From NCBI RefSeq assembly GCF_000270205.1, contig NC_015913.1:540109-572108 (forward strand): 32,000 nt of DNA. Direction: 5' to 3'. Of this stretch, positions 921-31,964 are shown piece by piece. The stretch's first letter is position 1, and each line of letters opens with the position of its first letter. A program made the position numbers and the translations under genes. This DNA comes from Candidatus Arthromitus sp. SFB-mouse-Japan (GTDB lineage: Bacteria > Bacillota > Clostridia > Clostridiales > Clostridiaceae). The notes under the pieces were generated by a model, which made no database searches, was not told the origin of the DNA, and was given only the letters and a program-made list of their open reading frames with translations.

Positions 921-936
921 TGTGAAGGTTTTTTTA
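910..936 (+). terminator. Rho-independent terminator of the CotS-like gene
   Basis: Stem CCTTCAC (910-916) / GTGAAGG (922-928) with loop TTAGT, followed by T7 (929-935). It overlaps the TAG stop at 918-920. Confidence 0.6.
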
Positions 937-1396
937 TAGTTTGTTGTTATTTATAATGTGTTTTAATAGAGAATCGCATCCAGCTTTAACGAGTTCAAAT
1001 GTTAAATCAAAATTTCTTGTATAATAAGGATCAGGAATAAATTTATGTGATGTATTTTCAATAAAATCTGTTAATTTATACACTTTTATATTAGGATTTA
1101 TGTTCATGACATCATTCATATTTGAATCATCCATAACAATTATATAATCGTTTGTATTTAAATCTTTTTCTGTAAGTTTTTTTAGATACAATGTTTGAAA
1201 AATCTATATTTAATTTTTTAAGGATTGTTTGAGTACCGTGATGAGGAGGATTTCCCACATTGTATCCAGATGTAGCCCTAGATGATACGTTAATTTTATC
1301 ACTAAGATTATTTTGTTTAATGATATGTCGCATATAGGCCTCACTCATTGGAGATCTGCAAATATTGCCCAAACATATGAATAAAATATTGACCAA
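934..1396 (-). pseudogene. Low-molecular-weight protein-tyrosine phosphatase, interrupted by a +1 frameshift in a homopolymer
   Basis: Two overlapping minus-strand ORFs (1127-1405 and 934-1191) together span about 155 codons, the normal LMW-PTP size. The N-terminal part carries the P-loop CLGNICRSP (CX5R) and the C-terminal part carries the DPYY acid loop. The frame changes inside an A7 run (T7 on the + strand, 1177-1183). With one A fewer, ...ATT GTA TCT AAA AAA continues CTT ACA GAA AAA GAT, giving IVSKKLTEKDL. The likely start is TTG at 1396, 6 nt after GAGGTG (complement of 1403-1408). Confidence 0.8.
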
Positions 1397-1546
1397 AGTA
1401 ATCACCTCAAATATAATTTTCTTAAGATTATATCATAATATAATTATAAATAGATGTTGTTTTTATTGGTATATTTCGTATAAAATTAAGTATAGACTCA
1501 AATACTAACTATTAAGATAATAATCAGTAGGGGTGAAATAAGAAGA

Positions 1547-2371
1547 ATGTACATATATTCACACTTAAACATAACAGATGTTTTAGAAATAATTAGGAAA
1601 GTGAATCCCGTAAAGATATTAGACGTTAATGTTGGATTTGGACGTTGGGGCATCTTGTGTAGAGAATTATTAGAGAGAGACAATATGGGAAAGGTTCGAA
1701 GGCCTGACTTATGGAATATTAAGATAGACGGAATAGAAAATATCACTAGTTCTTGTATACAAACCTATCATGATATCTTTTATGATAATATATATAGGCA
1801 AGATTTAGAGGGATTCTTTAAAAACCATTTAGCACTATATGATTTAACAATTTTTTCAAATGTATTGGAATATAGGTCAAGAGAAGAAAGTATTAGAATG
1901 TTAAGTAGTGCAATGGAGATATCGAGATTTATATTGGTTTATGTTAAACTTGGAAAACATAATGATCAATACACACCAGATGAAAGACAAGTTAGTATCT
2001 GGAAAAAAGAGGATTTTAATGGATATGATGTTGTTAACAATATCATTTTAAATGATAGATATGGAAATAAATATGGGATTTTCTTGATTGAGTGTAATAC
2101 GATTAAGAGAATATACAATAAAAATGTTGTTATATATGGAATAGATGATTATTTTGATTTATGTGTTAAACCATTTATAGATGAAAATAAAATCATATGT
2201 TTTATGGAAGAGAATGTATTTAAACAAGGACTTTTTCATATGGGAAAGATAATTCATACTATAAAGGGAGTTAAAAAAATAAAGGATGATTTTGTAATAA
2301 TAATAGCAAGTGTATTTTATAGAGAAATAAGGAAAAAACTTGAGGCCGCTAGCTTATATAATTTTATATAA
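1547..2371 (+). CDS. Putative class I SAM-dependent methyltransferase with a C-terminal Rossmann-like module
   Basis: ILDVNVGFGRWG resembles SAM-binding motif I (hhDhGxGxG), and DLTIFSNVLEY resembles the downstream acidic/hydrophobic motif. The C-terminal VVIYGIDDYF...FVIIIASVFYREIRKKLE resembles the small nucleotide-binding-like module seen in glycan-modification enzymes. RBS AGGGGTGA lies about 10 nt upstream of the ATG. Confidence 0.5.
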   Translation: MYIYSHLNITDVLEIIRKVNPVKILDVNVGFGRWGILCRELLERDNMGKVRRPDLWNIKIDGIENITSSCIQTYHDIFYDNIYRQDLEGFFKNHLALYDLTIFSNVLEYRSREESIRMLSSAMEISRFILVYVKLGKHNDQYTPDERQVSIWKKEDFNGYDVVNNIILNDRYGNKYGIFLIECNTIKRIYNKNVVIYGIDDYFDLCVKPFIDENKIICFMEENVFKQGLFHMGKIIHTIKGVKKIKDDFVIIIASVFYREIRKKLEAASLYNFI

Positions 2372-2382
2372 TTGTAATTTTT

Positions 2383-2418
2383 GACGCAAGACCTAATTCT
2401 TGTGTCTTATTATTTTTT
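2383..2418 (+). terminator. Rho-independent terminator
   Basis: A 9-bp stem GACGCAAGA (2383-2391) / TCTTGTGTC (2398-2406, one G-U pair) with a 6-nt loop, followed by TTATTATTTTTT. Confidence 0.55.
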
Positions 2419-2569
2419 AAAGGATATTTTTCATTTAATATTGAATTCTTGGTTTAATATAATTTTAATAATGTTCTAGAAATAATTTATTTTAAATAAT
2501 GTAAAATTGATTGAAGTTTTTTAAAAATAATGTATTTAATGAATGATTTATTTAGGAGAGATTGATATT

Positions 2570-3121
2570 ATGGACAATTTGAGTACAGAGGTAGTCACAG
2601 GAAAAGTTCGTTTTAATTGTGTGTATTTATGGGAACCTAGAATTATTAATAGTAATCCTGAATATTCAGTATGTTTATTAATACCAAAATCAGATGAAAG
2701 GACACTGAATGATATTAGACAGGCTATGAAAAATGCAAAGGAAATAGGGATAAGTATTTTAAATTACAATATGGATTTAGATCTTAAAATGCCATTAAGA
2801 GATGGCGATATTGAACGATCAGATGAGGTTTACGAAGGATGTTATTTTATGTATGCTAGTAGTGCTAATAAGCCACTTATATTAGATGAATTTAACAATC
2901 AAATTAATAATAAGGAAGATTTTTATAATGGTTGTTATGGATATGCATCAATTAATTTTTATGCTTTTAATACAGATAAGAATAAAGGCATAGCGTGTAG
3001 GATTAATAATATTGTCAAGATTGAAAATGGAGATTTACTAGATGATAAATCGACTGTAAAAGAAGATATGATATCTATAGAGGCTATAAAATTAGAAAAT
3101 TTAGAAGGTTTTATGGTTTAG
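2570..3121 (+). CDS. Phage-type ssDNA-binding protein (DUF2815 / Enc34-like SSB family)
   Basis: The full-length motif pattern of the family is present: VVTGKVRFNCVYLWEP, YSVCLLIPKSD, LKMPLRDGD, YFMYASSANKP, FYNGCYGYASINFYAFNTDKNKGIACRINNI and ENGDLL. I prefer the ATG at 2570 (MDNLS...), 9 nt after AGGAGAG (2554-2560), over the ORF-track start at 2543. Confidence 0.8.
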   Translation: MDNLSTEVVTGKVRFNCVYLWEPRIINSNPEYSVCLLIPKSDERTLNDIRQAMKNAKEIGISILNYNMDLDLKMPLRDGDIERSDEVYEGCYFMYASSANKPLILDEFNNQINNKEDFYNGCYGYASINFYAFNTDKNKGIACRINNIVKIENGDLLDDKSTVKEDMISIEAIKLENLEGFMV

Positions 3122-3193
3122 TGAAATTATATAAATTTAGATATAAAGTATTTTGTTTCATAGAAGTTTGAAACTTGTTTGTTATAGAGTTCT

Positions 3194-3230
3194 ATAGAGC
3201 AAATGCAGAGCATTTGCTCTATATTTTTTA
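3194..3230 (+). terminator. Rho-independent terminator
   Basis: A perfect 13-bp stem ATAGAGCAAATGC (3194-3206) / GCATTTGCTCTAT (3210-3222) with a 3-nt loop, followed by TTTTTT. Confidence 0.85.
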
Positions 3231-3363
3231 TAGGAAAAGATACAATTAATTTAATGATTTCTCATTAAAAGATACTATTTCAAAATTTTATATTTGTATA
3301 TAATTAAAACATTAAATAGAACAAGCAAAACAATATATAAATAATTTTTAGTAGATGATTAAT

Positions 3364-3486
3364 ATGTTAAAAGATAAGATTAAGAAGATAGTATCAGCGG
3401 TGGTTTTAGGGGCATTGTTAACAATTGGAGTAGGAAGTATAAAATCAATGGCAACAACAGACAATACACAACAACAAAATTTATAA
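3364..3486 (+). CDS. 40-codon ORF encoding only a Sec-type signal peptide; probable 5' part of a nonsense-interrupted gene
   Basis: The translation is MLKDKIKKIVSAVVLGALLTIGVGSIKSMATTDNTQQQNL followed by a stop. It has a Lys-rich n-region, a hydrophobic core and an SMA cleavage-like site. It ends at TAA 3484-3486, in the same frame as the ORF starting at 3496 (3496-3364 = 132 nt). Confidence 0.5.
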   Translation: MLKDKIKKIVSAVVLGALLTIGVGSIKSMATTDNTQQQNL

Positions 3487-3495
3487 GAAGTTTAT

Positions 3496-4149
3496 ATGGA
3501 CTTTGATAGTGTAGACGGAGATTATTATGAATATGATGAGTCTACTTACTCTGAGATTATAAAAGAATTGCTAGATTCAGGATATATAGATCAAGCTAAA
3601 GCTGATAGGTTTATACAAAATATTAATTCTGAATCAGTACAAGCGGAAATTATTAAAGAGTATAATTTATATGCAGTTGATTCATATGTGAAAGAAGGAT
3701 ATTATAGTGCGGAAGCTGGGGAATTAGAGAAGCAGTTAATAGAAGCACAATATGCAGGGAATGATGCACTAGTTGAAGAGTTAAATAATAAATATATGGA
3801 ACAATTAGAAAAAGATGGAGTGGTTTTTGATCTTTATGATAATACGTATTATCAAGATGCTGTGGATCATCTATTGAGTGAAGGATATATAGATCAAGCT
3901 AAAGCTGATAGCTTTACACAAAACATTGATTTTGAATCAGTACAAGCAGAAATTGTTAAAGATTATACTTTATACGCAATTGATTTATGGGTAAAAGATG
4001 GATATTACAGTGAAGAGACTGGAAAATTAGAGAAACAAATAGTAGAAGCAGAATATGCGGGGAATGATTCACTAGCTGAAGAGTTAAGGAATAAATACAT
4101 GGAACAATTAGAGAATGATGAACTAGCAAGTTTTTATGAACTTGGATAA
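3496..4149 (+). CDS. Acidic internal-repeat protein of unknown function (2 x 101 aa); probable 3' part of a nonsense-interrupted secreted-protein gene
   Basis: A 217-aa ORF with two near-identical halves (GYIDQAKAD.F.QNI..ESVQAEI.K.Y.LYA.D..VK.GYYS.E.G.LEKQ..EA.YAGND.L.EEL.NKYMEQLE.D). There is no obvious RBS before the ATG at 3496, and it is in frame with the upstream signal-peptide ORF. Confidence 0.6.
   Translation: MDFDSVDGDYYEYDESTYSEIIKELLDSGYIDQAKADRFIQNINSESVQAEIIKEYNLYAVDSYVKEGYYSAEAGELEKQLIEAQYAGNDALVEELNNKYMEQLEKDGVVFDLYDNTYYQDAVDHLLSEGYIDQAKADSFTQNIDFESVQAEIVKDYTLYAIDLWVKDGYYSEETGKLEKQIVEAEYAGNDSLAEELRNKYMEQLENDELASFYELG
3547..4146 (+). repeat. Tandem intragenic duplication, period 303 nt (units 3547-3849 and 3850-4146)
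   Basis: GGATATATAGATCAAGCTAAAGCTGATAG recurs at 3580 and 3883 (offset 303 nt). The protein halves align residue for residue. Confidence 0.85.
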
Positions 4150-12002: not shown

Positions 12003-15000
12003 TTGAATAATGGAGCTTTAAAAATTTTAAATTCAATATTTTTACTCTTGTTTGTGGTAAATTGCTTGGGATTTTCTAGTGCATATTCTAAAAATAAAGT
12101 AGTTAAACAATCGAGAGCATATGATTTGGAATTAAAGATTGATAATGTGAATTTCAATTCAGCTAAATTTAGTTGGGTATATCCGGAAGACATTGAATTT
12201 ACATTTGGAGATTACATAAGTTTGATTTTGATTAATGAAGAGAATGGAAGTCAAGGAGAAACTCCTATATTTTCTGTCATTCATGGTAAAGATGAGGCAG
12301 ATTTATCAGAGATTACAAGTTTTGAAATTAATTCACTAATACATTCAACAAAGTATCAGTTGAAATTAGAATTAAGCAAAATACAAGGGGATTATTATTC
12401 TGTTGAGGAAAGTTTTGAAACATCTGATTTTGAAATATTTGATATTCAAATAGAGGGAGCAGAGGAGGGAGTAGTTAGAAATAAGCTATTGAAGGTTAAT
12501 TGGAAAACAAATCCTGAAACAGTAGATTTTGGAGAAAATGATAAGGTTGAGATATTTTTAAAGAAATTAAGTGACAATGATTTTTCGAAAAAGCCAATTT
12601 TTTCATCAGATAAAGATGTTAAGAGTGCAGAATTTTCTCTCCCTGTGTTTGAAGAAATGTATGATTTCAAAATAGCGTATCGCTTGAAAGGAAATGTAAT
12701 TTATAGTGATTTCTTTTACTGTGATTTAAAAAGTGGGGGAGCAATTCCTGAAATGCAAGATATAAAATCTTCATCGGCTAAGCTTACTTTGAATTATCTG
12801 AATGAGGAAATGTTAACTGAAAATAGTAAAGTTAATATCTACATTAAAGAAGATAGGAATCTTGATTATAGTAAAGATCCGATTGTTTCATTTGATGGTA
12901 AGGAAGAGATTATTAAAAATAAAGAATATGTATTTAATAAACTTAAGTTTTCAACAAAATATTATGTTAAAGTTCAACTTGTTGTTGAAAGTTTTAATGA
13001 ATTTGGAAAAGATATGCTAGCTATGGATGAGAATAGATGTGAGTTTGAAACGAAAAAATTTGATATAAAGGATTTAGTTTTTACTGATGGAAATGAAAAT
13101 ATCTCAAAGCTTAGTTGGAATTTTGATGGTGAGGATATTTCATTTTCTGAAGGAGATAATTTGAAAGTTTACATAAAAGAGAGCTCAAAAGATAGCTATT
13201 CAGAGGATATTTTAAAAGACAGTACTTTAAGTGTAGATGAATTATTGACAAAAAAAGAGTTGAATATTACGTTTCCTAAGTATGATACAAAATATGATAT
13301 CAAGTTAATTTATACTATTGGGGGTAAACAGCTTTCTAAATATTTAACTCATACTGTTTCTTTACCTAAAATTGATTTTGGAGTAAAGGTGTTAAGTGAT
13401 GAAAGTTTGGAATTTAAATTTAATTTTGATCAAAATAAAACTAGGTTTGAAAAAAATGAGAATGATAGAATAGAAATTTTTGTTAAAAAATATGGTGAAA
13501 AAGATGAGGCTTATAAGTCTATAACATTTAACGATGAGGAGTTAAATGATATGGAAGTTTCATCAAGAGAGGGAGAAGATGTAACTGAGAACAAAATAGA
13601 GCGAAAATTGAAGATTGAAAATATTTCATCTGTTGTTAATGGAGCTTCGGGATCAAGAGAGGGAAGTCAGGATGAAGGAGATCAAGTTAACAGTAGTGGA
13701 GGAGGTCAAGATGATTCAAGTTCCACGCAAGAGGAGAAAAAGCAATATGATTTTAAAATCGTTGTAACAAAAGATGGGGCTTTGTTCCAAGAGAAGTTTT
13801 ATAGAGTGTCAATGGAAAAGGATTCACTTCAAATTGTTGATGTGGTTTTTAAGAAGATAAATGAGAAAAAGGTTGAGACAAGTGTTGAGTATGCACCTTA
13901 TGATTATGATTTTAATGATAAGGTTGAATCGCTTAGTTATACAAAGGAGAAGAATTCATCTTCTAAAAGTAAAAATCCTGAATTTAAGAGGTCATCGAAT
14001 AAGACTACATCAATAACTAATGATTTTAAAACAAATAACAAATTTGAGATAGAGTTTGAAGATTTCGGAGTTTATAAATTGAAATTTTCGTATAAGATGA
14101 AGGAAAATGGAACTACAGATGGGGTTACTACTACTACTAGAAATTCAGAAAATCAGTTTAAATGTAACGAGATGGAAAAAATTTATGATAATAAGTTTGA
14201 TGTTTTTAAATTTGAGTTAGTAGATGATGTTTTTAATGAAATAAAATTAAATTTAAATTTTGTGAATTATTATAAGCCTAAAAATGGAGATAAAGTTGAT
14301 ATATTTTTCAAAGTAAGTGGTGATGAAAGTGAATCTGAATCCGGAGATGATAGTTTTAGTAAAGATCCATTAGTCACATTTGTTCATAAAGATAATGAAC
14401 TCAATTTAGTAAATATGGGAGCTTTTGATTTATCTGGACTTGATGCTGGAACTAAGTATACTTTTAGAGCGAAATTCACCGCTAAGGATCATATATCAAA
14501 TGTGATACAAGAAGATAAAAATGCAGCTACTAAAGATATTAAAATTTCTAATTTGAGGATTGATCATGTATCTGACATAGTTGCATATGTAAGATGGGAG
14601 CTTGAAGAGGGATTTGAGTTTGGAGTTAATGATAAAGTGGATATTTTCTATAAAGTAGATGGAGAGGAATATCCAGAAGAAGCAAACCAACAGGAAGAAG
14701 ATTTATATATTAGTGATGGAGTTATTATTTATTTAGATACAGTTGATACTCAATATAAAGTAAAGTTTATATTTAGGAGTGGAAGTAAAACTCTTGAGAA
14801 AGAAATAGATTTTAATAATAAAATAGATGATTTAGATGCCGAAATTACAGATGTTTATGAAACATCCACTTATATAAAATGGAATTATCCTTCTAATTAT
14901 GATTTTACAGATGGAGAAAGTATTGCAATATTTATAAAAACAAAGGATGGAACTTATGATGAAGAGCCAGATTATTATGTTGAACAAAATGAAGAAGAGG

Positions 15001-16388
15001 GCGAGGATGTAAAAACATTTAAAAGTATTAAAATGACAAATTTGTATCCAAATACAGAATATGATGCAAAAATTTTATTAGATTTTGGGGATGTAGGGAA
15101 GAAAGAAAAGGAAGTTAGTTTTAAGACTAAAGAAATTGATATGTTAAATATTTCACTTAAGGCGTTGTCTAATAATTTTTTTGATATAGGCTGGGAGTTT
15201 TCTTCAGATACACTTGATTTTGATGAATATGTGGATTCTTTAAATATATATAGGAAGCTTGAAGATGATGATTTTTCGGATTCTAATATTATTTATAAAA
15301 TTGAAAATGGTATTGATAAAAGAAATAGTATAAGACTTGAAGTAGATGATATTTATGAGAGTTATGATATTAAGATTGAATACAAATTTTTATCTGGAAG
15401 TATAGAGAAAACGATTTCTGCAGGAGGGTTTCTTGCGGAGTTTGAAGGGGATACATCTAATTTGATGGTGAAATATCCTGAATCTTTAGTATTTGAAAAA
15501 GGTGATTTTATAAAAGTTCTTGCAAGAGAAGGATTAGAGGGAGATTATGAAGATTTTATAAATATAGAACATTCATCTTCTGAAAATTTAAATAAATTAG
15601 AAAATATAGAATTAGATAGTTTACTTAGTGGAACATCGATTATTTTGAGCATTAACAATAAAAATACTCAAGTTTTTCCTGTAGAGATTACTTATGAATA
15701 TGAGGAAGTTGGAGATGAAGACGGGGGAGAATCAGAATATCCAGTTTTAGATATTGTAAGTGAAATGAAAGGAAATTGGGTAGATATAAGTATTCCAGAT
15801 GAATATGATATTGATACTTCATCAGAAGTTTTAAATAGCATTGGTGGTAATTCTTACTATGACCAATTAGAAGATGGAACGTATGTAATAGTAATAGATA
15901 GAATTGTACCTAAAAAAGTTTACTCTAATGTATTTGTTTTAACATCTGATATGAGTGGAAATGAAGTTAGGTTTGATATAGGTGAATTTCAATTAGAACC
16001 ATATAATTTGTTAGAAGATTTTCTATTTAACTCTTATTATTTTGCTTTTGATAGGGAACCTGATGAAAACGGATACAATTATTGGAAAGATCAACTTGAA
16101 GTAGAGGGAAATTTGTCAGGGAAGTATTTTCTTATTAATTTAATGTTTGCAGAAAGAGAGTTTGCAGATAGAAATCTGAGTGATGAAGATTTGATTAAAG
16201 CTTTATATCAAATTGTAGTTAACAGACAGTATGATACTGAAGGATTAAATTATTGGATTTATATGTATGGTGAATATTTAAATGAGTTCGGCGGTGATAA
16301 ATATGAAGCGAAGAAAACTTTAGTTTTAAGGATGGCTTATGAACCTGAGTTCGGAAGATTATGTGATGAAATGGGAATAGCTTGGTAA
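12003..16388 (+). CDS. Giant secreted Fn3-like repeat protein with C-terminal twin DUF4214-like cassette (paralogue A, 1461 aa)
   Basis: An uninterrupted 4.4-kb ORF. TTG start behind AGGAAAGGAAGG. The N-terminal hydrophobic signal-like segment is ILNSIFLLLFVVNCLGFSSA. About 12 modules of roughly 100 aa carry Fn3 hallmarks (W.YP...F..GD.I.IF.K, L.P.T.Y.AK). The C-terminus is FAFDREPDENGYNYW...ALYQIVVNRQYDTEGLNYW. Confidence 0.9.
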   Translation: MNNGALKILNSIFLLLFVVNCLGFSSAYSKNKVVKQSRAYDLELKIDNVNFNSAKFSWVYPEDIEFTFGDYISLILINEENGSQGETPIFSVIHGKDEADLSEITSFEINSLIHSTKYQLKLELSKIQGDYYSVEESFETSDFEIFDIQIEGAEEGVVRNKLLKVNWKTNPETVDFGENDKVEIFLKKLSDNDFSKKPIFSSDKDVKSAEFSLPVFEEMYDFKIAYRLKGNVIYSDFFYCDLKSGGAIPEMQDIKSSSAKLTLNYLNEEMLTENSKVNIYIKEDRNLDYSKDPIVSFDGKEEIIKNKEYVFNKLKFSTKYYVKVQLVVESFNEFGKDMLAMDENRCEFETKKFDIKDLVFTDGNENISKLSWNFDGEDISFSEGDNLKVYIKESSKDSYSEDILKDSTLSVDELLTKKELNITFPKYDTKYDIKLIYTIGGKQLSKYLTHTVSLPKIDFGVKVLSDESLEFKFNFDQNKTRFEKNENDRIEIFVKKYGEKDEAYKSITFNDEELNDMEVSSREGEDVTENKIERKLKIENISSVVNGASGSREGSQDEGDQVNSSGGGQDDSSSTQEEKKQYDFKIVVTKDGALFQEKFYRVSMEKDSLQIVDVVFKKINEKKVETSVEYAPYDYDFNDKVESLSYTKEKNSSSKSKNPEFKRSSNKTTSITNDFKTNNKFEIEFEDFGVYKLKFSYKMKENGTTDGVTTTTRNSENQFKCNEMEKIYDNKFDVFKFELVDDVFNEIKLNLNFVNYYKPKNGDKVDIFFKVSGDESESESGDDSFSKDPLVTFVHKDNELNLVNMGAFDLSGLDAGTKYTFRAKFTAKDHISNVIQEDKNAATKDIKISNLRIDHVSDIVAYVRWELEEGFEFGVNDKVDIFYKVDGEEYPEEANQQEEDLYISDGVIIYLDTVDTQYKVKFIFRSGSKTLEKEIDFNNKIDDLDAEITDVYETSTYIKWNYPSNYDFTDGESIAIFIKTKDGTYDEEPDYYVEQNEEEGEDVKTFKSIKMTNLYPNTEYDAKILLDFGDVGKKEKEVSFKTKEIDMLNISLKALSNNFFDIGWEFSSDTLDFDEYVDSLNIYRKLEDDDFSDSNIIYKIENGIDKRNSIRLEVDDIYESYDIKIEYKFLSGSIEKTISAGGFLAEFEGDTSNLMVKYPESLVFEKGDFIKVLAREGLEGDYEDFINIEHSSSENLNKLENIELDSLLSGTSIILSINNKNTQVFPVEITYEYEEVGDEDGGESEYPVLDIVSEMKGNWVDISIPDEYDIDTSSEVLNSIGGNSYYDQLEDGTYVIVIDRIVPKKVYSNVFVLTSDMSGNEVRFDIGEFQLEPYNLLEDFLFNSYYFAFDREPDENGYNYWKDQLEVEGNLSGKYFLINLMFAEREFADRNLSDEDLIKALYQIVVNRQYDTEGLNYWIYMYGEYLNEFGGDKYEAKKTLVLRMAYEPEFGRLCDEMGIAW
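12126..16007 (+). repeat. Array of about 12 divergent Fn3/Ig-like coding modules (about 300 nt each) in paralogue A
   Basis: The repeat is at protein level only. Recurrent signatures are W.[YF]P/W.F..., GD/ND-K-[VI]-x-I-[FY]-x-K, and either L.P.T.Y..K (type A) or Y[DS].K[IL].Y..GG (type B). No long identical nucleotide repeats were seen. Confidence 0.75.
16008..16385 (+). other. Twin DUF4214-like C-terminal cassette of paralogue A
   Basis: LLEDFLFNSYYFAFDREPDENGYNYWKDQL...EREF followed by LSDEDLIKALYQIVVNRQYDTEGLNYW. This gives two copies of the hh..hY...h.R.sD..G..YW pattern typical of DUF4214. The protein ends ...EMGIAW. Confidence 0.7.
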
Positions 16389-16411
16389 TTTTGTATTTAT
16401 GGAGGAGAGGA

Positions 16412-19400
16412 ATGAAAATATGTATGAAGAGATTCATTATTAATCTTATGACTCTTATATTTTTGTTTGAATTGATACCATTTGGGGAAATGGGAATTAA
16501 GTTCGGCTTTTTTAAGAAAGCCGAAGCTTATTATACCCAACTTGAAATGGTTGCACCAGGTTATGTGATAAGCCCTGAGGAAGGGGGGATTGTATTTGAT
16601 TTAAGTCAAAGATTATCATCTTCAATGAGTGTTGAATCGTTTAGTGTAAAGAATACAAATCCTGAACAGCAGAAGAAAGATTTAAAAGAGGAATCTTCTG
16701 ATGGAGTTAGATGGTTATCAAAGGATGAAATGATAAATGGTCATATTTATGAAATTGAAAGTAAGATTTATGATACTGACACGCAGGAAACAATAACATT
16801 TATAAATTCTTTTAAGTATATAGATAAAAATATAGCTTATAATCCTAAGCTATCTTTTTCGAAGTTTGATTCTAGTAGAATGGTTACTCAAGATGTTATA
16901 TTTGATTTTTCTGAGTGCAGGGAATTAATAGATAATTCAAATAATCTTAAGCTTGAGATTTTAAATTCTGATTTAACAAGAGCAGAGATAGATCCTATGA
17001 ATATTAATAAAAATGATGTTGTAAATAATGGATATAAGTATACTATTTCTAGAGCAGCTTCTTTATTTAGACCAAACAAAGATTATATAGTTAGACTCCA
17101 TGCAGATGGTATTATTTGGGATAAAATGATTTCTTGTCCAGTAAAGGGGAATCCTACGATAGTTGAAAATATTAAACCTGTAGCTATGGATTTTAGATAT
17201 TATCCTGAAAGCAGAAATTTTTACTTTCATACAATAGATCTTGGAATTTTTAAAAAATTTGAGGATAGGATTAATGTTGTGGTTAAGGCTATTTTAAATA
17301 ATCCAAAAAAAGGTTTTGTTCCAGTTGAGGTAACAGCTGAAATACCACATGTAATAGAAATTAAAGTTCCAGAAGAATATTATACTACATCAATACCAAG
17401 TGATTTGAGGGTTTATGTTATTGATAAGAGTACTGGACTTGTACTTGCTGAATATTTATTTCAGTTTACATTTAGGTCTGATAAGGGAATTATGATGTGG
17501 AGAAATTTAAAGCATTCAGCTGAAAAAGAAGCAACAGGATATAAGATTAATAAAATAAAATTAGATCATACTGACGATAACAATACTATTCCACATTCAT
17601 GGGATGGACTTCCTAGGGCACATTATATAACTCTTTATGATAATAAATTAGAAAATCAAATAGGTGGAGAATTCAGATTTGATGTTACAGATCCTGAGTA
17701 TAGAAAACAATTCCTTGAGCCGACTCATGATGTTAGAGGAGCTAATTTTAAGATACCATTTACTGATATGAAGCAAGGGTTTAATAGTTATAATTTTAAA
17801 GTTGAATCTAGTAGTCAGTATCCAGAGTGGGCATATGCACATATACCATTTGGATTTTATGCAGATGTTGCTGAAATAAAAGATTTAGATATTAATATAA
17901 AAAATGTAAAACCAAATGAAAATGGAGATAAGTATAGTTTTACTCTTGAAATAAAGAATCAAAAAATTGTTATTGGCGATAAGATGAGCTTTATAGATGA
18001 TGACGGTAAGGAGCATATATCTACTTCAAATAGTTCGAAGACATTTGACTTTAAAGATGTCCCAATGGTATTTGGAGGGAAATATGTGGTAACTTATAAT
18101 CAAATAAGTTCTTTGCTTCATTTTAAATCTACAGATTTATCTATATTGTTTAATCCAGTTGTTATAGGTACTTTTTCAGATGAGAGGGATAGTATTGAAA
18201 TTACTATCGATAATAAATATGAAAAAATTTTGAGCACTGATAAAGGTCAAAATAAGTTAAGAATACTTAATATGAATGGTACTAGTACGGGAAATGATTT
18301 TTCAAATTTTGGGATAGGAAAAACTAAATTTGCGTTAAATGGAAATTTGATTGAAGGAGAAAATTATATAGCAGAGGTATCTAATTCTAAGGGAGAAGTA
18401 TATAAAACTACTTTCCAGTATTCTACAATGAAACTTGATTTATCGGAGATAACAGGTACAACAGCAAAGCTTGACTGGGAATATCCTGATAATTACCTAA
18501 TAACTGATGGAGATGCATTAAGTATATATTTCAAAAAAGATGGATCTGGATATCCTGCTGTTCCCGATGCAAAAATAGTGCATGGTTTTCAAGGAGTAGA
18601 TTTCAATGACGTTACTACATACACGATTAAGAATATGAGCCCGAATGTAAACTATACGGCAAAGCTTGAACTTGCAACAAATGAAGGCATGACTTATGTG
18701 GATGAAGTTGAATTTGTAACGAGTACTTTTAAAATTTTAAATGAAGAAATTGAGGGTATTTCTGAAGATGGAACCGTAAATAGTAAATCTATAACTTTTA
18801 AGTGGGATATAAATCTTGGTGATATAGAATTTTATGAAGGTGATAAAGTTGAGGTTTTTCTTAAACCACTTTCTCATAATGCATTTCCCAAAACACCGAC
18901 GGCAACTATTGATAAAGATTTAAATAGAATGAAACGGATTAAATTTGATGTACCAAATTATTATGAATCTTATAGTGTCAAAATTGTATATACAATAGGT
19001 GGAGTTAGGCATACGAGTAAAGTATTAAATTTTACTGTGAATATGCAAGATGTTGAAGTATATATGAGTACTATTACTCAGTGTACAGCTAATATTAACT
19101 GGAAGTATCCAAAGGATGTAGATGTAGATAGTAATTTTGAAGAGGTTAGGATTTATACAAAAAAACACAGTGATTTAGAATTTAAGCTTGAAAAAACTTA
19201 TAATAAATCTGAGAAAGCTCTTAATGATGTAGTTAAACATGTGATTAAGAATTTAGGTATCGATACCAAATATAAAGCTAAATTAGTATTTAAAATTGGT
19301 GAAAAGTCAGTTGCAGGAGTGAAAGAAGAGATAACTCAAGTTGTTGAGACTGAATTTAAAACAGAGAATTTTGTTATAGAAAAATTTAATGTTACGAATG

Positions 19401-22400
19401 ATATAAGTAATTTCATAATAGCAACATGGGATATAAAAGATGATAGTTATCCTTATACTACAAATGATAGTGTGGCACTTTTTGTAAAAGAAAGAGGAGA
19501 ACCATCACAAAATTATATTAGAATTAATTCTATGGGAGGAGATATTGCAGGGAAAAGATCATTTAATGGATCTATGGTACCTAAATACAATGTGGATTAC
19601 GATGTAAAATTGACCTATACCTTAGGAGAAAAAGAAGTTAGTGCTTATTCAGCTATTAAATTAGATATTGGTTATATAAAACTCAAGATAGACGAAATAA
19701 ATGATACTAAAATTAAACTTTCTTGGACTTATCCAAATGAGATTTTAAGAGGTGATAAGGTCGAAATAAGTTTAAAAAATCTTAGTAATGAAAATGACGT
19801 AAAATCTGAATCAAAGGTTCAGAATTTTGATCATGGAAATACTGTTATGATTGAAGAGTTTAGAGAAAAAGAATTTGATTTAACTAAGGATAATATGTAT
19901 GAAGTTAAACTTAGGTTAACTTCAGATTATTTTTATCCTATGGAAGAATCATTCAGGTTTAAGGCTACTTCTGATTTTCAAATTTTAAGTTTAGATGGTG
20001 AGTCTATGGACTCTAGTACATTTAAACTTGATTGGGATTTTTATAATAATAATCAAGAATTTAATACAAGTGATAAAGTTGAAATTTTATATAAACGATT
20101 GAATGAATTAGATTTTCAAAGTAATGCTAGGACGACAAGTGAAGATGATCAATTTACAGGTATTAGTTCTGTTAATATGCAAACTGGAACTGAATTGAGC
20201 AGATTTAAATCCTACATAGTTCAGGGACTTGATGTGAATAAGGATTATTTATTTAGAGTACGTTATACATTTAATAAAGATAGAATTCAAAAGGTAGTAT
20301 ATAAAGATTTAGTAGGAAAAACAGAGCCTAAAAAACTGAATTCAAGTGTAATTGATGTACAGCCAACAGGTGTTAAAATTATGCTTGAGTATCCAGAGGC
20401 CTATGAAATAGTGGAAGGCGATATTTTAGATATATTTATAAAGGAAAAAGAAGGAGCAAATTATGGAGTTAATCCTAATTTTACTGGGAAACATGGTAAT
20501 GAAGAGGGCGATTTTGATTTAAATGAGGTAACTATGCTTGATATACTTGGATTATCTCCAGATAAAGAGTATAATGCTAAAGTTGTATTTTGGCCAGATG
20601 GTGGGTCAGGAAATAAAGAAGAGGTAGAACTTAGTTTCAAAACAGATACCGTAAAAGGTATAGCTGAAGTATCTATAGGTGATGTATTGGATTATGTTGT
20701 AAAAGTTGGTATCAAGATGAATCCAGAAGAAATTATTTTAAGTGATAAGGATAGTTGTAAAATTTTTATAAAGAAAAAGGATCAACCACATTATCAAGAT
20801 ACACCAAATGGTGAAATGCGAGGAGATATATTCAACGAAGAAAGATTTGTATCAGCATATTTCGATGAGTTGAATGCAGAGTATACTGTAAAAGCTGTGG
20901 TAAATATCGGAGGTAGTGAATTTGAATATGAGACCGACTTTGTAAGCAAAGTTGATGATTTTAGTATTGATGTTATAGAAATTAATCCGATGACAACACA
21001 AGTTGAATGGAAATATCCAGATAACTATACTCTTGTAAATGGTGAAAGTATTCAAATATTTATTAAGTATAAAGATGAAGAAGATTTCTTGAGTGAACCT
21101 GATCTTGAACTTATTCAATCAGAAGAAATGAGCTTATATGATACAAATTTGGTTGAGTTATATTCACTAATACCTGATACAGATTATGAAGTTAAAGTTA
21201 AATTGAATTTATTGGAGGCAGATATTGAACCGATTATTAAAGAATTTACAACAACGACTTTTGAAATAGAAAATTTGGAGATAGCAGATGTAAGCAGTGA
21301 TGGAATGTCTCTCACATGGGAGTTAAGTACAGAGGAATTGGATTTTTTAGATGATTATGATAATTTAGCTATATTTATAAAAAATAAGAATGAAGATGAT
21401 TATGATTTTTCGAATCCTGTGGCGGAGTTTACTGAAGACTTAAATAATATAAGATCTGTGTCTTTTGAGACAGAAGAGAGTATAGCAGATATTGATATTT
21501 ATGTATCATATTTAATTGAAGATTATGAAGCAGCTATGGAAATATCATATACAGCAATTGAACTTAGTGTTGAAGTGCAAGATGAGGGTGTATTAGTTGA
21601 ATGGAGTTATCCTCCTGGAATAGAATTTGAACCTGAGGATAAACTCGATATTTATTTGAAACACGCAAATAAGTCAGGATATAAAACAGAGCCAAATTTT
21701 AGATACACTCATGAAGAAGATGGGGATTTGACTGAGTTGAATCAAATATTCTTTAAGAAATTAGAAAAAGGGAACTATAAGATGAAATTTTCTTTAATTA
21801 CTGCTGATATGAGATATAATCCTATAGAAATTGAGTTTAGTACGGAAGGTAGTCAAGAAGTAATAGATGGAATAGAACTTAAGTTTAATGGTAAATCGAG
21901 TGGAAGAAAAATAGAACTAAATATTGTTGGAGATGAAGAATTTGATTATGAAAAAGGATTTTATATTGATCCTGAAGGATTAGATCTTGAAATAGATGAA
22001 GATAGAAATAAGTTTATAGTTTTAAATTTAGTTCCAAATAAGGAATATAAAAATATAATTATAACGTTCTTTACAGCAGATGATGAAGAAGTTAATTTTG
22101 TTGTTAAAAATGTGAAAATAGATCCAGAAACTCTTTTGGAAGAATTCATAACAAATATTTATAAGTTTGCGTTTGAACGTTATCCAGATGAAGAAGGATA
22201 TAGCTATTGGTTAGGGAAACTTCTTGAAAAAGGTGAAATTACAGGTAAATTTGTTTTATATAATTTGATGTTTTCAGAACGTGAGTTCTCTGATAGAAAT
22301 CTTTCTGATGATGATCTCATAAAGGTTTTATATCAGATAGTGGTTAATAGAGAGTATGATGAGGGAGGACTTAATTATTGGATAGGTGAATATAGAAACA

Positions 22401-22516
22401 CATATTTACCTCAAGCAAATAATGATAGTTATGAAGCACAGAAGGCTATAGTAGAGAGAATGTTACATGAACAGGAATTTAAAGATTTGTGCAACAAAAT
22501 GGGAATCTTATGGTAA
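16412..22516 (+). CDS. Giant secreted Fn3-like repeat protein with unique N-terminal region and C-terminal twin DUF4214-like cassette (paralogue B, about 2034 aa)
   Basis: An uninterrupted 6.1-kb ORF. I prefer the ATG at 16412, 6 nt after GGAGGAGAGG (16401-16410), over the ORF-track start at 16382. The N-terminal hydrophobic segment is FIINLMTLIFLFELIPFG...KKAEA. A non-repeat region of about 635 aa precedes about 12 Fn3-like modules, and the C-terminus is colinear with paralogue A. It starts 23 nt after the paralogue A stop with no terminator in between. Confidence 0.9.
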   Translation: MKICMKRFIINLMTLIFLFELIPFGEMGIKFGFFKKAEAYYTQLEMVAPGYVISPEEGGIVFDLSQRLSSSMSVESFSVKNTNPEQQKKDLKEESSDGVRWLSKDEMINGHIYEIESKIYDTDTQETITFINSFKYIDKNIAYNPKLSFSKFDSSRMVTQDVIFDFSECRELIDNSNNLKLEILNSDLTRAEIDPMNINKNDVVNNGYKYTISRAASLFRPNKDYIVRLHADGIIWDKMISCPVKGNPTIVENIKPVAMDFRYYPESRNFYFHTIDLGIFKKFEDRINVVVKAILNNPKKGFVPVEVTAEIPHVIEIKVPEEYYTTSIPSDLRVYVIDKSTGLVLAEYLFQFTFRSDKGIMMWRNLKHSAEKEATGYKINKIKLDHTDDNNTIPHSWDGLPRAHYITLYDNKLENQIGGEFRFDVTDPEYRKQFLEPTHDVRGANFKIPFTDMKQGFNSYNFKVESSSQYPEWAYAHIPFGFYADVAEIKDLDINIKNVKPNENGDKYSFTLEIKNQKIVIGDKMSFIDDDGKEHISTSNSSKTFDFKDVPMVFGGKYVVTYNQISSLLHFKSTDLSILFNPVVIGTFSDERDSIEITIDNKYEKILSTDKGQNKLRILNMNGTSTGNDFSNFGIGKTKFALNGNLIEGENYIAEVSNSKGEVYKTTFQYSTMKLDLSEITGTTAKLDWEYPDNYLITDGDALSIYFKKDGSGYPAVPDAKIVHGFQGVDFNDVTTYTIKNMSPNVNYTAKLELATNEGMTYVDEVEFVTSTFKILNEEIEGISEDGTVNSKSITFKWDINLGDIEFYEGDKVEVFLKPLSHNAFPKTPTATIDKDLNRMKRIKFDVPNYYESYSVKIVYTIGGVRHTSKVLNFTVNMQDVEVYMSTITQCTANINWKYPKDVDVDSNFEEVRIYTKKHSDLEFKLEKTYNKSEKALNDVVKHVIKNLGIDTKYKAKLVFKIGEKSVAGVKEEITQVVETEFKTENFVIEKFNVTNDISNFIIATWDIKDDSYPYTTNDSVALFVKERGEPSQNYIRINSMGGDIAGKRSFNGSMVPKYNVDYDVKLTYTLGEKEVSAYSAIKLDIGYIKLKIDEINDTKIKLSWTYPNEILRGDKVEISLKNLSNENDVKSESKVQNFDHGNTVMIEEFREKEFDLTKDNMYEVKLRLTSDYFYPMEESFRFKATSDFQILSLDGESMDSSTFKLDWDFYNNNQEFNTSDKVEILYKRLNELDFQSNARTTSEDDQFTGISSVNMQTGTELSRFKSYIVQGLDVNKDYLFRVRYTFNKDRIQKVVYKDLVGKTEPKKLNSSVIDVQPTGVKIMLEYPEAYEIVEGDILDIFIKEKEGANYGVNPNFTGKHGNEEGDFDLNEVTMLDILGLSPDKEYNAKVVFWPDGGSGNKEEVELSFKTDTVKGIAEVSIGDVLDYVVKVGIKMNPEEIILSDKDSCKIFIKKKDQPHYQDTPNGEMRGDIFNEERFVSAYFDELNAEYTVKAVVNIGGSEFEYETDFVSKVDDFSIDVIEINPMTTQVEWKYPDNYTLVNGESIQIFIKYKDEEDFLSEPDLELIQSEEMSLYDTNLVELYSLIPDTDYEVKVKLNLLEADIEPIIKEFTTTTFEIENLEIADVSSDGMSLTWELSTEELDFLDDYDNLAIFIKNKNEDDYDFSNPVAEFTEDLNNIRSVSFETEESIADIDIYVSYLIEDYEAAMEISYTAIELSVEVQDEGVLVEWSYPPGIEFEPEDKLDIYLKHANKSGYKTEPNFRYTHEEDGDLTELNQIFFKKLEKGNYKMKFSLITADMRYNPIEIEFSTEGSQEVIDGIELKFNGKSSGRKIELNIVGDEEFDYEKGFYIDPEGLDLEIDEDRNKFIVLNLVPNKEYKNIIITFFTADDEEVNFVVKNVKIDPETLLEEFITNIYKFAFERYPDEEGYSYWLGKLLEKGEITGKFVLYNLMFSEREFSDRNLSDDDLIKVLYQIVVNREYDEGGLNYWIGEYRNTYLPQANNDSYEAQKAIVERMLHEQEFKDLCNKMGILW
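18434..22132 (+). repeat. Array of about 12 divergent Fn3/Ig-like coding modules in paralogue B
   Basis: Examples are AKLDWEYPDNYLITDGDALSIYFKK...IKNMSPNVNYTAKLEL, VEWKYPDNYTLVNGESIQIFIKYK...LYSLIPDTDYEVKVKL and VEWSYPPGIEFEPEDKLDIYLKH. These are interleaved with type B modules ending YSVKIVYTIGG, YDVKLTYTLGE and YTVKAVVNIGG. Confidence 0.75.
22133..22513 (+). other. Twin DUF4214-like C-terminal cassette of paralogue B
   Basis: LLEEFITNIYKFAFERYPDEEGYSYWLGKL...EREF followed by LSDDDLIKVLYQIVVNREYDEGGLNYW. The protein ends ...KMGILW. This is the segment most similar between the two paralogues. Confidence 0.7.
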
Positions 22517-22520
22517 TATA

Positions 22521-22554
22521 TTAACCATCAATATTAATTGATGGTTAATTTTTT
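22521..22554 (+). terminator. Rho-independent terminator of the giant-protein operon
   Basis: A perfect 12-bp stem TTAACCATCAAT (22521-22532) / ATTGATGGTTAA (22537-22548) with loop ATTA, followed by TTTTTT. Confidence 0.85.
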
Positions 22555-29615: not shown

Positions 29616-31964
29616 ATGTCAGTTGAGCTATTAGCTCCAGTTGGAAGTTATGAGTCTTTTATCGGTGCAATTAATGAAGGTGCGGATGCTATATATTTGG
29701 GGGGTGAAAAATTTTCTGCAAGGGCGAATTGTGAGAAATTTTCAGATGAAGAATTTCAATATATGATTGATTATGCTCATGAATATGAGGTCAAAGTTTA
29801 TGTTGCTTTCAATACTCTTATAAAGCAAGAGGAGCTTAAAGAAGCTTTTGAATATGGGTTGAAGTTGTATAACATGGGTGTGGATGCTTTAATAGTTCAA
29901 GATCCTGGGCTTATATATATGTTTACAAAATTTAAGGAACTTGAGGTTCATGCGTCAACTCAATTAAGTATACATAATTTATTTGGTGCAAAGTATTTTA
30001 AAGATAACGGAATAACTCGTATTGTGGTTGCGAGGGAATTATCTATTGAGGATATAAGAACTATTTCTGAGGAAGTTGAAACTGAGGGATTTATTCATGG
30101 AGCAATTTGTGTTAGTTATTCGGGTCAATGTACTATGAGTGGACTTATATCAGATAGAAGTGGGAATAGGGGAAGGTGTGCTCAGCCCTGTCGTATGGAA
30201 TATTCTTTGATAGATGATAATAGTAAATTTCATAAAACAGGTTTTCTCATGAGTACAAAAGATTTGATGACTATAAATATTTTGCCAAAACTTTTAAAGG
30301 AAACGAAGATTAAATCATTAAAGATTGAGGGAAGAATGAAACGTGGAGAGTATGTTGTGAATACGGTTCGTTCTTATAAGGAAGTAATAAGGGAGATTGA
30401 AAAAAATAAGGAAGTTACAGATTTATATATAAAGAAAAAGGAAGATGATTTATTAAAAGTATTTAATAGAGAGGGATTTACAAATGGATATATGCTTGGT
30501 TATGAAGGTGAGAAGTTTTTATCTGTAAATAACCCTAAAAATCAAGGCACATATTTAGGAGAGATGTTAAATGATGGATATATTATTTTGAAGAATGATG
30601 TGTCACTTGGAGATGGAATTTCTTCGTTATATGATGGATGTATTTTAACAAAGATACTTTATAATAATGAAAAGGTATCTGTAGGAAAGTCTGGCATGAA
30701 GGTTAAATTATTTCCAACGAGATTTTCAAAAGGAGATAAAATTTTTAAGACTAATGATCAAAAATTTGAGAGAGAATTGAGGGAGAGTTTTAAAAAAGAA
30801 TATGTAAATAAAAATTATGTTAATGCTAATTTTGTATTTGAAGTTAATAAACCTATGACTTTAGAACTTAAATATAAGGGTTATAGGGTGAAAGTATTTG
30901 GTGGGGTTGTTGATGAAGCCATAAATACTCCTTTAGACAGAGATAGGATTATAACTCAGTTAAAGAAAGGAAGTATTGGAAGCTTTTCTATAGGTGAGGT
31001 TAGTTTGAATTACCAGGAGGGATATATAAATATTTCAAAGATAAATGAATTAAGAAGAGAGTCTCTAACTAAGTTAAGAGATAAGGTGGTTAATAGTTAT
31101 CACAATAATTTTGAATTTAGTTTTGATGAAAATTTTTTAGCTGATAAAAAAGATATTCAAAATGATGATGAAAGTTATATTATTTATGTTTCAACTCAAG
31201 AACAGTTTAATGTTGTTTATGAAAATGGATATAGAAATATTATAATATCTCCTTTTATATATAGAAGAAAATTAGACTTTGAAAGTATTTTATCGAAGGG
31301 TGATTTAAATTTATATGTGAAATTTCCAACAATAATAAAAGATAGTGAAATGGAAAAAATATTTAGAGTATTTGAAAAATTTAAAGATAGTATAAAAGGA
31401 ATTTTAACAAGTAATGCAGGTATACTTAGACATTTTAGAGGTTCAGACTATGAAATAATAGGAGATGTTAAACTAAATGTATTCAATGAAGTTTCAACTA
31501 GATTTTATAAAGAAATAGATATTTTTACAATAAGTGTGGAACTGTCTAGGAAAGAAATATTTGATTTATCTACGATAAGCGATAAAAAACTTTGTATGTT
31601 TGTTTACGGGAAGACGGACATAATGGTTAGTGAATATTGTCCAATAGGAACATTTGTAGGGAAAAGGTCTTTAAATAATAAGTGTTCACGACCTTGTACT
31701 AGGGACAATTTTTATTTAAAAGACAGGGTTAATAATAAGCTACTTTTAACAACGGAAATTAATTGTAAAATTCATACATATAAAGAGAAACCTATTGATT
31801 TAATAAGTCAGATTAATGAGATTAAAAATAAAAATATAAATGTTTTTAGGTTAGATTTTATTGATGAAAGTTGTGAAGATGTTCAGAAAATATTAAATAA
31901 TTTGTTTGAAAAACGTTCAGCTAAAAATGCATTTAGTGGGAACTATTATAAGCCTGTTGAGTAA
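29616..31964 (+). CDS. U32-family protein (annotated 'collagenase-like peptidase' family; long two-module form)
   Basis: The N-terminus is LLAPVGSYESFIGAINEGADAIYLGG. The U32 signature region is EGFIHGAICVSYSGQCTMSGLISDRSGNRGRCAQPCR. A second Cys-rich segment, MVSEYCPIGTFVGKRSLNNKCSRPC, lies near the C-terminus. RBS GGAGGAAG lies upstream. Length is 782 aa. Confidence 0.88.
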   Translation: MSVELLAPVGSYESFIGAINEGADAIYLGGEKFSARANCEKFSDEEFQYMIDYAHEYEVKVYVAFNTLIKQEELKEAFEYGLKLYNMGVDALIVQDPGLIYMFTKFKELEVHASTQLSIHNLFGAKYFKDNGITRIVVARELSIEDIRTISEEVETEGFIHGAICVSYSGQCTMSGLISDRSGNRGRCAQPCRMEYSLIDDNSKFHKTGFLMSTKDLMTINILPKLLKETKIKSLKIEGRMKRGEYVVNTVRSYKEVIREIEKNKEVTDLYIKKKEDDLLKVFNREGFTNGYMLGYEGEKFLSVNNPKNQGTYLGEMLNDGYIILKNDVSLGDGISSLYDGCILTKILYNNEKVSVGKSGMKVKLFPTRFSKGDKIFKTNDQKFERELRESFKKEYVNKNYVNANFVFEVNKPMTLELKYKGYRVKVFGGVVDEAINTPLDRDRIITQLKKGSIGSFSIGEVSLNYQEGYINISKINELRRESLTKLRDKVVNSYHNNFEFSFDENFLADKKDIQNDDESYIIYVSTQEQFNVVYENGYRNIIISPFIYRRKLDFESILSKGDLNLYVKFPTIIKDSEMEKIFRVFEKFKDSIKGILTSNAGILRHFRGSDYEIIGDVKLNVFNEVSTRFYKEIDIFTISVELSRKEIFDLSTISDKKLCMFVYGKTDIMVSEYCPIGTFVGKRSLNNKCSRPCTRDNFYLKDRVNNKLLLTTEINCKIHTYKEKPIDLISQINEIKNKNINVFRLDFIDESCEDVQKILNNLFEKRSAKNAFSGNYYKPVE

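Follow-up and report, generated by a model that had tools for sequence, protein, structure and literature searches.

Tandem arrays of fibronectin type III (Fn3; PF00041) domains, as in fibronectin, titin, contactins and cytokine receptors, consist of seven-stranded modules of about 100 aa joined by short linkers, and each position of such an array has its own orthologue across species. SasG and Aap alternate two kinds of module, G5 and E, and the Leptospira paralogues LigA and LigB carry 13 and 12 Big_2 domains, a fixed number of diverged Ig-like modules matched by position. Here we analyzed a stretch of 32,000 nt (the window) of Candidatus Arthromitus sp. SFB-mouse-Japan (contig NC_015913.1, positions 540,109 to 572,108), in which two large paralogous genes, A and B, lie in tandem. 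Each encodes a protein that begins with a signal peptide-like sequence, contains 12 modules of ~100 aa and ends with a DUF4214 domain. The modules belong to two alternating subtypes, type A and type B, and they correspond by position between proteins A and B. The same correspondence extends to a third family of paralogues, D, which is encoded outside the window. This positional, alternating 12-module pattern is real and statistically solid, and no description of such an architecture was found in the literature searched.

The arrays of A and B resemble the Fn3 arrays in module size, strand number, short linkers and the separate orthologue at each position, and their type A modules also have the strand B Trp and the tyrosine corner. 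They differ in being bacterial, in having a module type (type B) that escapes the Pfam fn3 model, in their strict period-two alternation and in ending with DUF4214. The likeness to the SasG and Aap rods lies in the principle of alternation only, and LigA and LigB differ in their domain family, their lipoprotein anchor and their lack of an alternation of two subtypes. With the fibrillar adhesins (Monzon/Bateman; PMC9210967), A and B share the long secreted protein, the rod of repeated domains, the C-terminal anchor (here presumed) and the distal N-terminal region, and fibrillar adhesins with diverged repeats or a stalk-like N-terminus have already been described (PMC9210967). Unlike them, A and B have no known adhesive domain or sortase motif, their presumed anchor is DUF4214, and one of the paralogues lacks a head. 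In Periscope proteins (SHIRT, Rib, and SasG and Aap with their G5-E repeats; PMC8201768), a distal domain is also projected on a rod-like stalk. Their stalks, however, are nearly identical DNA repeats that differ in number from strain to strain (PMC8201768), whereas the repeats of A and B are diverged, leave no repeat in the DNA and do not vary in number, and no match to G5, SasG_E, Rib or SHIRT was found in A or B with Pfam. The stalk shared by A, B and D represents a variant of an already well-known type of surface fibre in bacteria, and it provides a clean bacterial case of a two-module super-repeat frozen at a fixed module number, which is the opposite regime to the Periscope proteins.

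The source organism belongs to the segmented filamentous bacteria (SFB; Candidatus Arthromitus). SFB attach to the ileal epithelium, and this contact drives Th17, IgA and CD8 responses of the host. The DUF4214 surface proteins of SFB ("Cluster 1/3"; Pamp et al. 2012, PMC3371716) come from the same organism as A and B, are likewise secreted and have the same C-terminal domain, and an Fn3 domain was noted in one Cluster 3 protein (PMC3371716). This protein set includes the CD8 antigen SFBNYU_003240, which bears DUF4214, and in the Th17 antigen P3340 there is a conserved motif at the C-terminus that has been proposed to act as an anchor (PMC7474095). A and B were ruled out as either antigen, since the T-cell epitopes SGLIYVTL and QFSGAVPNKTD are both absent from A and B and the recombinant Th17 antigen is only ~114 kDa in size. 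The main value of A, B and D is that they are defined candidates for uncharacterised SFB surface structures. The analysis yields a testable description of three conserved, SFB-restricted paralogues of a putative surface fibre, including domain maps, a lineage-specific subtype of Fn3, a prediction of how long the rod is, a probable hinge and a hypervariable distal cassette in the B head.

Module architecture of A and B

Gene A (12003-16388, + strand) encodes 1461 aa with a signal peptide, a 12-module stalk and a C-terminal DUF4214 domain, and gene B (16412-22516, + strand) encodes 2034 aa from its ATG. Amino acid positions of B are numbered from the mechanical open reading frame (ORF) 16382-22516. 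Scanning A and B with Pfam detected fn3, which was weak (66.2 bits for whole protein B and 30.8 bits for A, cut-off 25), and DUF4214 (PF13946; 45.4 bits for A and 53.3 bits for B, cut-off 23.2), and no further domain. A hidden Markov model (HMM) grown from the sequence located 11 modules per protein and a divergent 12th ahead of DUF4214.

Modules 1 to 11 fall into two types. Type A (~103-109 aa) corresponds to the classical Fn3, having W-x-Y-P and the tyrosine corner L-x-P-x-T-x-Y, and type B (~94-100 aa) has D-K-V-E-I-F-x-K and a terminal Y-D-x-K-x-x-Y-x-I-G-G; type A modules are consistently ~8 aa longer. When the positions 1-11 were divided in all 462 possible 6/5 partitions, the odd/even split ranked first by within- minus between-type score. 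HMMs for odd and even modules, trained on family D alone, called all 22 window modules (A01-A11 and B01-B11) in the order A, B, ..., A. The same alternation was seen at five additional SFB loci as well as in other orthologues. The original prediction, made from the sequence of the window, had described two module flavours running largely A-B-A-B along both proteins. Both points were supported, the alternation being strict for modules 1-11, and all 21 peptide strings that it quoted were found in the modules where it had placed them.

It had also described modules 5-6 as irregular. This was a fair remark, but both modules fit the alternation, if weakly. The profile of module 6 scored about alike against type A (86) and type B (76), its N-terminal half being type-B-like (W-D-F...D-K-V-E-I in B06) and its C-terminal half type-A-like (G-L-D-V-N-K-D-Y in B06). 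Module 12 is of another kind, as its profile scored 20 or less against the modules of all other positions and its hhalign probability against either type was 2-4%. A motif, F-[KET]-T-x-x-F-x-I, recurs at the odd-to-even junctions in all three paralogues, and no shared motif was found at the even-to-odd junctions of A, B and D. Since the motif recurs solely at odd-to-even boundaries, the repeating unit appears to be the A-to-B pair.

In protein A, the HMM module map places the stalk at 12126-16019 (+ strand), with modules starting at aa 42, 150, 247, 356, 459, 612, 735, 849, 944, 1048, 1142 and 1237 and the last one ending at aa 1339. The types are A,B,A,B,A,B,A,B,A,B,A, followed by the distinct module 12. 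Modules 5-6 (13377-14204, + strand) form a degenerate pair with a low-complexity insert rich in S/G/D/E/Q, and the DUF4214 domain (PF13946 by Pfam), the putative wall or surface anchor, follows the stalk at 16020-16385 (+ strand).

The mapped stalk of B, also on the + strand, comprises aa 683-1923 (nt 18428-22150); the original prediction had placed it at 18434-22132, which corresponds to aa 685-1917. Module 1 (18428-18751) is of type A, with W-x-Y-P and L/M-x-P-x-x-x-Y, a Pfam fn3 score of 23.6 bits on its own and an hhalign score of 105 with A01. Module 2 (18752-19051), the module that was modelled, is of type B with D-K-V-E-V-F-L-K and Y-S-V-K-I-V-Y-T-I-G-G, and scored 128 with A02. Profiles and type HMMs assigned module 3 (19052-19378) to type A and module 4 (19379-19675) to type B. 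Module 5 (19676-19984) was typed A by the HMMs and scored 82 with D05, and module 6 (19985-20335), the hybrid, has a variable low-complexity insert and scored 88 with D06. Module 7 (20336-20662) is of type A by the type HMMs (B07-D07 score 120), and module 8 (20663-20959) was called type B, weakly, by profiles and type HMMs. Module 9 (20960-21268) is of type A (fn3 21.7 bits alone; A09-B09 score 115), and profiles and type HMMs assigned module 10 (21269-21559) to type B and module 11 (21560-21850) to type A. Module 12 (21851-22150), related to neither type, has an l-v-P-x-K-x-Y motif and scored 72 with A12. It is followed by the DUF4214 domain of B (22151-22513, + strand; Pfam).

Correspondence of modules between paralogues

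BLASTP aligned A with B in two collinear segments, A29-495 with B669-1132 (26% identity, E 2e-39) and A747-1461 with B1331-2044 (31% identity, E 2e-75). Weaker out-of-register matches were also observed, which indicates that the repeat is internally recognisable. With single sequences, Smith-Waterman Z-scores were strong at positions 1, 2, 4, 10 and 12 and ambiguous at positions 3, 5, 6, 7, 8 and 11, and the matches A07-B06, A09-B07 and B05-A01 pointed to a shifted register. Module profiles were therefore compared, built from 15 clusters of B orthologues (2012-2058 aa, 43-93% identity) and 10 clusters of A orthologues (1386-1558 aa). The profiles overturned the register shift, with scores that favoured collinearity (78 for A07-B07, 89 for A07-D07 and 88 for B06-D06). 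On this evidence, the shifted single-sequence matches are attributable to general type A similarity and to the hybrid nature of module 6.

In the profile comparison, the same-position B module was the top match, among 23 modules, for 11 of the 12 A modules. The exception was A06, which is so degenerate that it had no significant partner. Eight pairs of A and B modules were reciprocal best matches, and the assignment of A to B modules that maximised the score was the identity, 1-1 through 12-12. The summed same-position score was 988. None of 100,000 permuted assignments reached this value, their mean being 480 ± 68 and their highest score 818. The mean A-vs-B score was 82 in register, 45-48 at shifts of ±2 and 33-34 at shifts of ±1.

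The third paralogue family provided a further array. D proteins (P0038-P0050, 1888-1983 aa), which include the SFB-mouse protein P0040 (1918 aa), have a head of ~420 aa, 12 modules in the same order and DUF4214, and B500-2044 was collinear with D236-1906 in a single BLASTP segment (E 6e-150). Among the 36 modules of A, B and D, the top match was at the same position for 30 and within the same protein for four. Average-linkage clustering of the scores paired same-position modules at 11 of 12 positions and gave just two small single-protein clades, A05+A11 and D01+D07, the latter two modules being mutual best matches with a score of 121. Hence all 36 modules taken together group by position and not by protein. 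The claim that each module of A is closest to its counterpart in B was confirmed with orthologue profiles, although single sequences show it only in part. The optimal identity assignment and the same order in D likewise supported the proposal that the 12-module order is older than the duplication.

These comparisons also bear on whether A and B could be Periscope-type arrays of variable length that evolve in concert, with the positional match arising by chance. The mutual best match of D01 and D07 and the clustering of A05 with A11 are what such an array could produce. It is nevertheless extremely improbable here, given the permutation result, the scarcity of top matches within the same protein, the constant module number in all orthologues and the lack of near-identical DNA repeats. 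Concerted evolution of the A, B and D stalks was ruled out by the permutation test together with the position-wise clustering.

Fold and distribution of the two module types

Pfam fn3 recognises type A, in agreement with its earlier description as a classical Fn3, although the single modules B01 and B09, scanned alone, fall just below the cut-off of 25 bits. Type B modules matched nothing in Pfam or NCBIfam. When the two types were aligned with hhalign, the probability was 98.8% (E 1.3e-16 over 92 columns), which indicates that types A and B are clearly homologous. Structure models were generated with AlphaFold2 (AF2) for B02 and for the B head. The B02 model, built from an alignment of 46 type B sequences, has seven strands, with a pLDDT of 89.4 and a pTM of 0.80. 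Nearly all of the top 50 Foldseek matches of this model in the PDB were Fn3 domains or Fn3-containing receptors (TM 0.55-0.69), including myomesin My5, contactins, NCAM, BOC, cytokine receptors, titin and fibronectin FN11; their E-values were weak, the best being 6e-3. According to the model, both types share the Fn3 fold. A distinct fold for type B was ruled out by the A/B homology and the Fn3-like B02 model, and the idea that the two types might be distinct topologies was not borne out.

At E <= 1e-3, the type B profile matched only 29 of 1.84 billion cluster representatives. Those with strong scores were members of this protein family, and two weaker named outliers were eukaryotic fibronectin-like/titin-like and RPTP-beta-like proteins. 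A word-indexed protein search with the type B alignment returned three fragments only, and a PDB sequence search with the profile gave no meaningful match. Since nearly all profile matches belong to this family and the named outliers are Fn3 proteins, we interpret type B as a lineage-restricted, highly diverged Fn3 subfamily that is nearly confined to this protein family.

Conservation of module number and length

Module counts were compared among members of the three families (10 of A, 16 of B and 13 of D), with identities down to about 40-47%, and at five loci of other SFB lineages. Twelve modules were present in every A, B and D orthologue compared, and no gain or loss was found. Most module lengths were invariant or varied within 0-2 residues even at about 40-50% identity. 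Module 1 is 108 aa long in 26 of 26 A and B sequences, and B07, B08, B09 and B10 have 109, 99, 103 and 97 aa, respectively, in nearly all B sequences. Length variation of more than 100 aa was found in A orthologues at A05 (102-218 aa) and A06 (118-223 aa). B06 ranged from 104 to 137 aa among orthologues, and the lengths of D04-D07 varied too. The variable stretches of A05, A06, B06 and D04-D07 hold low-complexity inserts rich in S/G/D/E/T. The stalk had been predicted to have kept a fixed length. This holds for the number of modules in A, B and D, but the physical length varies through the inserts in modules 5/6.

At the DNA level, no repeat with a period of ~300 nt was detected with Tandem Repeats Finder and a repeat search, the longest shared stretches being 25-47 nt at 66-82% identity, and modules within a protein share ~20-30% identity. 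Positional orthology is to be expected of such an array, because diverged modules without a DNA repeat offer no substrate for recombination or slippage. A fixed stalk had been called unusual for repeat adhesins, which is overstated for repeats that are old, diverged and without DNA repeats; surveys of fibrillar adhesins already record stalks that lack highly identical repeats (PMC9210967).

The constant module number might accordingly reflect evolutionary inertia, in that repeats of 20-30% identity provide no substrate for unequal recombination. The low identity among modules of one protein and the lack of a DNA repeat of module period are in line with this explanation, as is the drift of overall length through low-complexity inserts of up to ~120 aa. 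Module number also differs in the related family C (P0016-P0027, 1397-1442 aa) and in P0052 (1710 aa), from metagenomic lineages, which have DUF4214 and the A/B alternation with ~9-10 detectable modules, and which also carry a variable P/E-rich linker. Inertia does not readily account for single module lengths kept within 0-2 residues at ~40% identity, for the 12 modules in each of three long-separated paralogues (26-31% identity), or for the confinement of indels, which do occur, to modules 5-6 (4-7 in family D). We graded these points against inertia as suggestive and not decisive, and regard inertia as a possible explanation, though not the probable one. Because lengths of individual modules are tightly kept and three old paralogues all retain 12 modules, we lean towards constraint and tentatively suggest that the constant length and order of the stalk are under selection.

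N-terminal regions and the DUF4214 domain

The paralogues differ at their N-termini. A is headless, its module 1 starting at aa 42 directly after the signal peptide. The N-terminal region of B (16412-18427, + strand) consists of the signal peptide and ~640 aa of several beta-sandwich domains, according to the AF2 model. This model, covering the first 672 aa, consists almost entirely of strands (pLDDT 84.6, pTM 0.72). Pfam and NCBIfam gave no match on the heads, and Foldseek matched the B head to generic multi-domain beta-sandwich chains at TM 0.10-0.17, including CD109/TEP/complement MG domains, gp130, the Bap BSP domain and fibronectin. Since these matches are generic and low, no function was assigned to the B head, and no adhesive domain was recognised in A or B with Pfam or in the Foldseek search of the B head.

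The last ~180 aa of the B head form a neck that is shared with D and was typed as extra A-like modules. The neck of B (window 18077-18427, aa ~566-682) contains at least one more type-A-like module, with an HMM match at aa 598, and the junction motif F-K-S-T-D-L-S-I at aa 579-588. These two features suggest that the array of B and D extends about two modules N-terminal of the 12 that are shared with A.

Residues 157-500 of the B head (window 16850-17881) form an allelic cassette. In this segment, B is 60% identical to the mouse-type allele P0001 (59 member sequences), whereas identity reaches 97-99% in the flanks and 100% in the stalk and DUF4214 (four substitutions). The value of 60% equals the mouse-vs-rat divergence of the same segment. 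The pattern points to replacement of the distal head by recombination or to diversifying selection on it.

Within the proteins, conservation is highest in DUF4214, with a mean pairwise identity of 77% in A and 83% in B (77-87% within families). A PDB sequence search with DUF4214 found no relative. LP.[TSA]G was not found anywhere in A or B, whose C-termini end in ...GIAW and ...GILW, respectively. SFB lack sortase, and a conserved C-terminal motif has been proposed as the anchor of their surface proteins (PMC7474095). DUF4214 has been proposed as the likely anchoring device of SFB surface proteins (PMC12780176, PMC3371716), and we presume that it is the wall or surface anchor of A and B.

Proposed role at the cell surface

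Together, the results support the hypothesis that A and B probably form the rod of a secreted SFB surface fibre, that is, an alternating 12-module array that was built once and serves as a passive, anchored spacer. The array would have been built by amplification, probably of a two-module unit. The gene would then, before the sampled SFB lineages split, have given rise to at least three paralogues, namely the headless A, B with a 670-aa all-beta head and D with a head of ~420 aa, and whole modules would not have been gained or lost after the paralogues had formed. The stability of module number would be due to modules too diverged to recombine and, more tentatively, to selection on length and order. 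Dissimilar neighbouring domains disfavour inter-domain misfolding in tandem arrays. The alternation of subtypes may keep neighbours dissimilar and at the same time remove the substrate for recombination.

The protein would be exported and held at the wall or surface by DUF4214, to which module 12, as a separate kind of module, may link the rod. An Fn3 domain spans ~3.5 nm in the fibronectin FN7-10 structure. Since there are 12 modules, and very short linkers between these Fn3-fold units, the predicted passive rod or spacer would measure ~35-45 nm if extended. It would hold the distal N-terminal domains of B and D off the wall, and in the headless A the rod itself could be a surface "hair". The variable inserts in modules 5/6 are a probable hinge between two stiffer arms.

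Several observations weigh against this interpretation. The margins of the type calls were weak for A05, A06 and B08, and module 6 flips type, being called A in several B and D orthologues. The D01/D07 pair hints at some exchange within the gene, and the count in family C indicates that module number is not immutable over long times. Surface location, anchoring by DUF4214, rigidity, the hinge, the spacer role and the rod length are all properties that we infer.

An adhesive function is an assumption, because no adhesive domain was found and paralogue A is headless, and the label "adhesin" overstated the case. We consider it rather unlikely that B and D are classical fibrillar adhesins, whose stalk would present a host-binding head at the SFB tip with a length tuned to reach the enterocyte membrane. 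Their layout of head, stalk and anchor is that of fibrillar adhesins (PMC9210967). The divergence of the B head cassette between otherwise identical mouse-type alleles is as expected for a part facing a ligand or the immune system, and exterior-facing SFB proteins evolve fast (PMC7474095). However, no known adhesive domain is present, Pfam is silent on the head, the head model reached only low Foldseek scores, paralogue A has no head, and the authors of a cryo-electron tomography study argue that the filament coat is protective and not adhesive (PMC12780176).

The same 2025 study described hair-like structures at the SFB tip, with a length of 34 ± 6 nm and a width of 1.3 ± 0.4 nm, and a regularly spaced hair-like layer with subunits ~5 nm apart, and stated that the composition of both is unknown (PMC12780176). 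That A, B and D are components of the hair-like layer or of the tip structures is thinkable because the predicted rod dimensions (~35-45 nm) are compatible with the hairs. We nevertheless hold it to be a long shot, and SFB encode many DUF4214 proteins, which weighs against tying these three to the hairs. If it were true, the invariant module number would set the thickness of the coat, and the B head cassette would be an exposed, immune-selected tip.

Gene organization and surroundings

The window has a G+C content of ~27%. The best named protein relatives are annotated "DUF4214 domain-containing protein" and come from Candidatus Arthromitus sp. SFB-rat-Yit (~70% identity) and from SFB-mouse. 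The two tandem ORFs, 12003-16388 and 16382-22516, lie on the same strand. An RBS-like sequence (RBS, ribosome-binding site), AGGAAAGGAAGG, is located upstream of the TTG start of gene A. The mechanical ORF start of B is a TTG at 16382, which overlaps the 3' end of A. The true start of B is almost certainly the ATG at 16412, because it is preceded by GGAGGAGAGG, a strong RBS, because the stop of A lies 23 nt upstream, and because orthologues start with MKICMKRF. No terminator-like site was found in the 23 nt that separate A and B, and a terminator-like hairpin with a 13-bp stem and a T run lies directly after B (22520-22549, + strand). On these grounds, A and B probably constitute one operon.

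The A-B tandem and its flanking synteny, from the TPR gene region to zapA, are kept in five other SFB lineages, and the divergent lineages with the tandem include the chicken-associated metagenome-assembled genome Candidatus Dwaynia gallinarum and uncultured Arthromitus. The conservation of the tandem across divergent lineages suggests that the duplication is older than the radiation of the sampled SFB. The genes flanking A-B are housekeeping genes, encoding RecJ, a histidine kinase, MurG, a TPR protein, ZapA, rubrerythrin, a cation efflux protein, a MATE protein and a transglycosylase.

Two further features of the window were observed. The ORF at 2543-3121 strongly matches the Enc34 phage ssDNA-binding protein family (PF10991, E 5e-49). 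It lies among ORFs with no or marginal Pfam match, and the region 21-4149 may be a prophage remnant. A U32 peptidase of 782 aa with a DUF3656 "collagenase" domain is encoded at 29616-31964, a few genes downstream of A-B.

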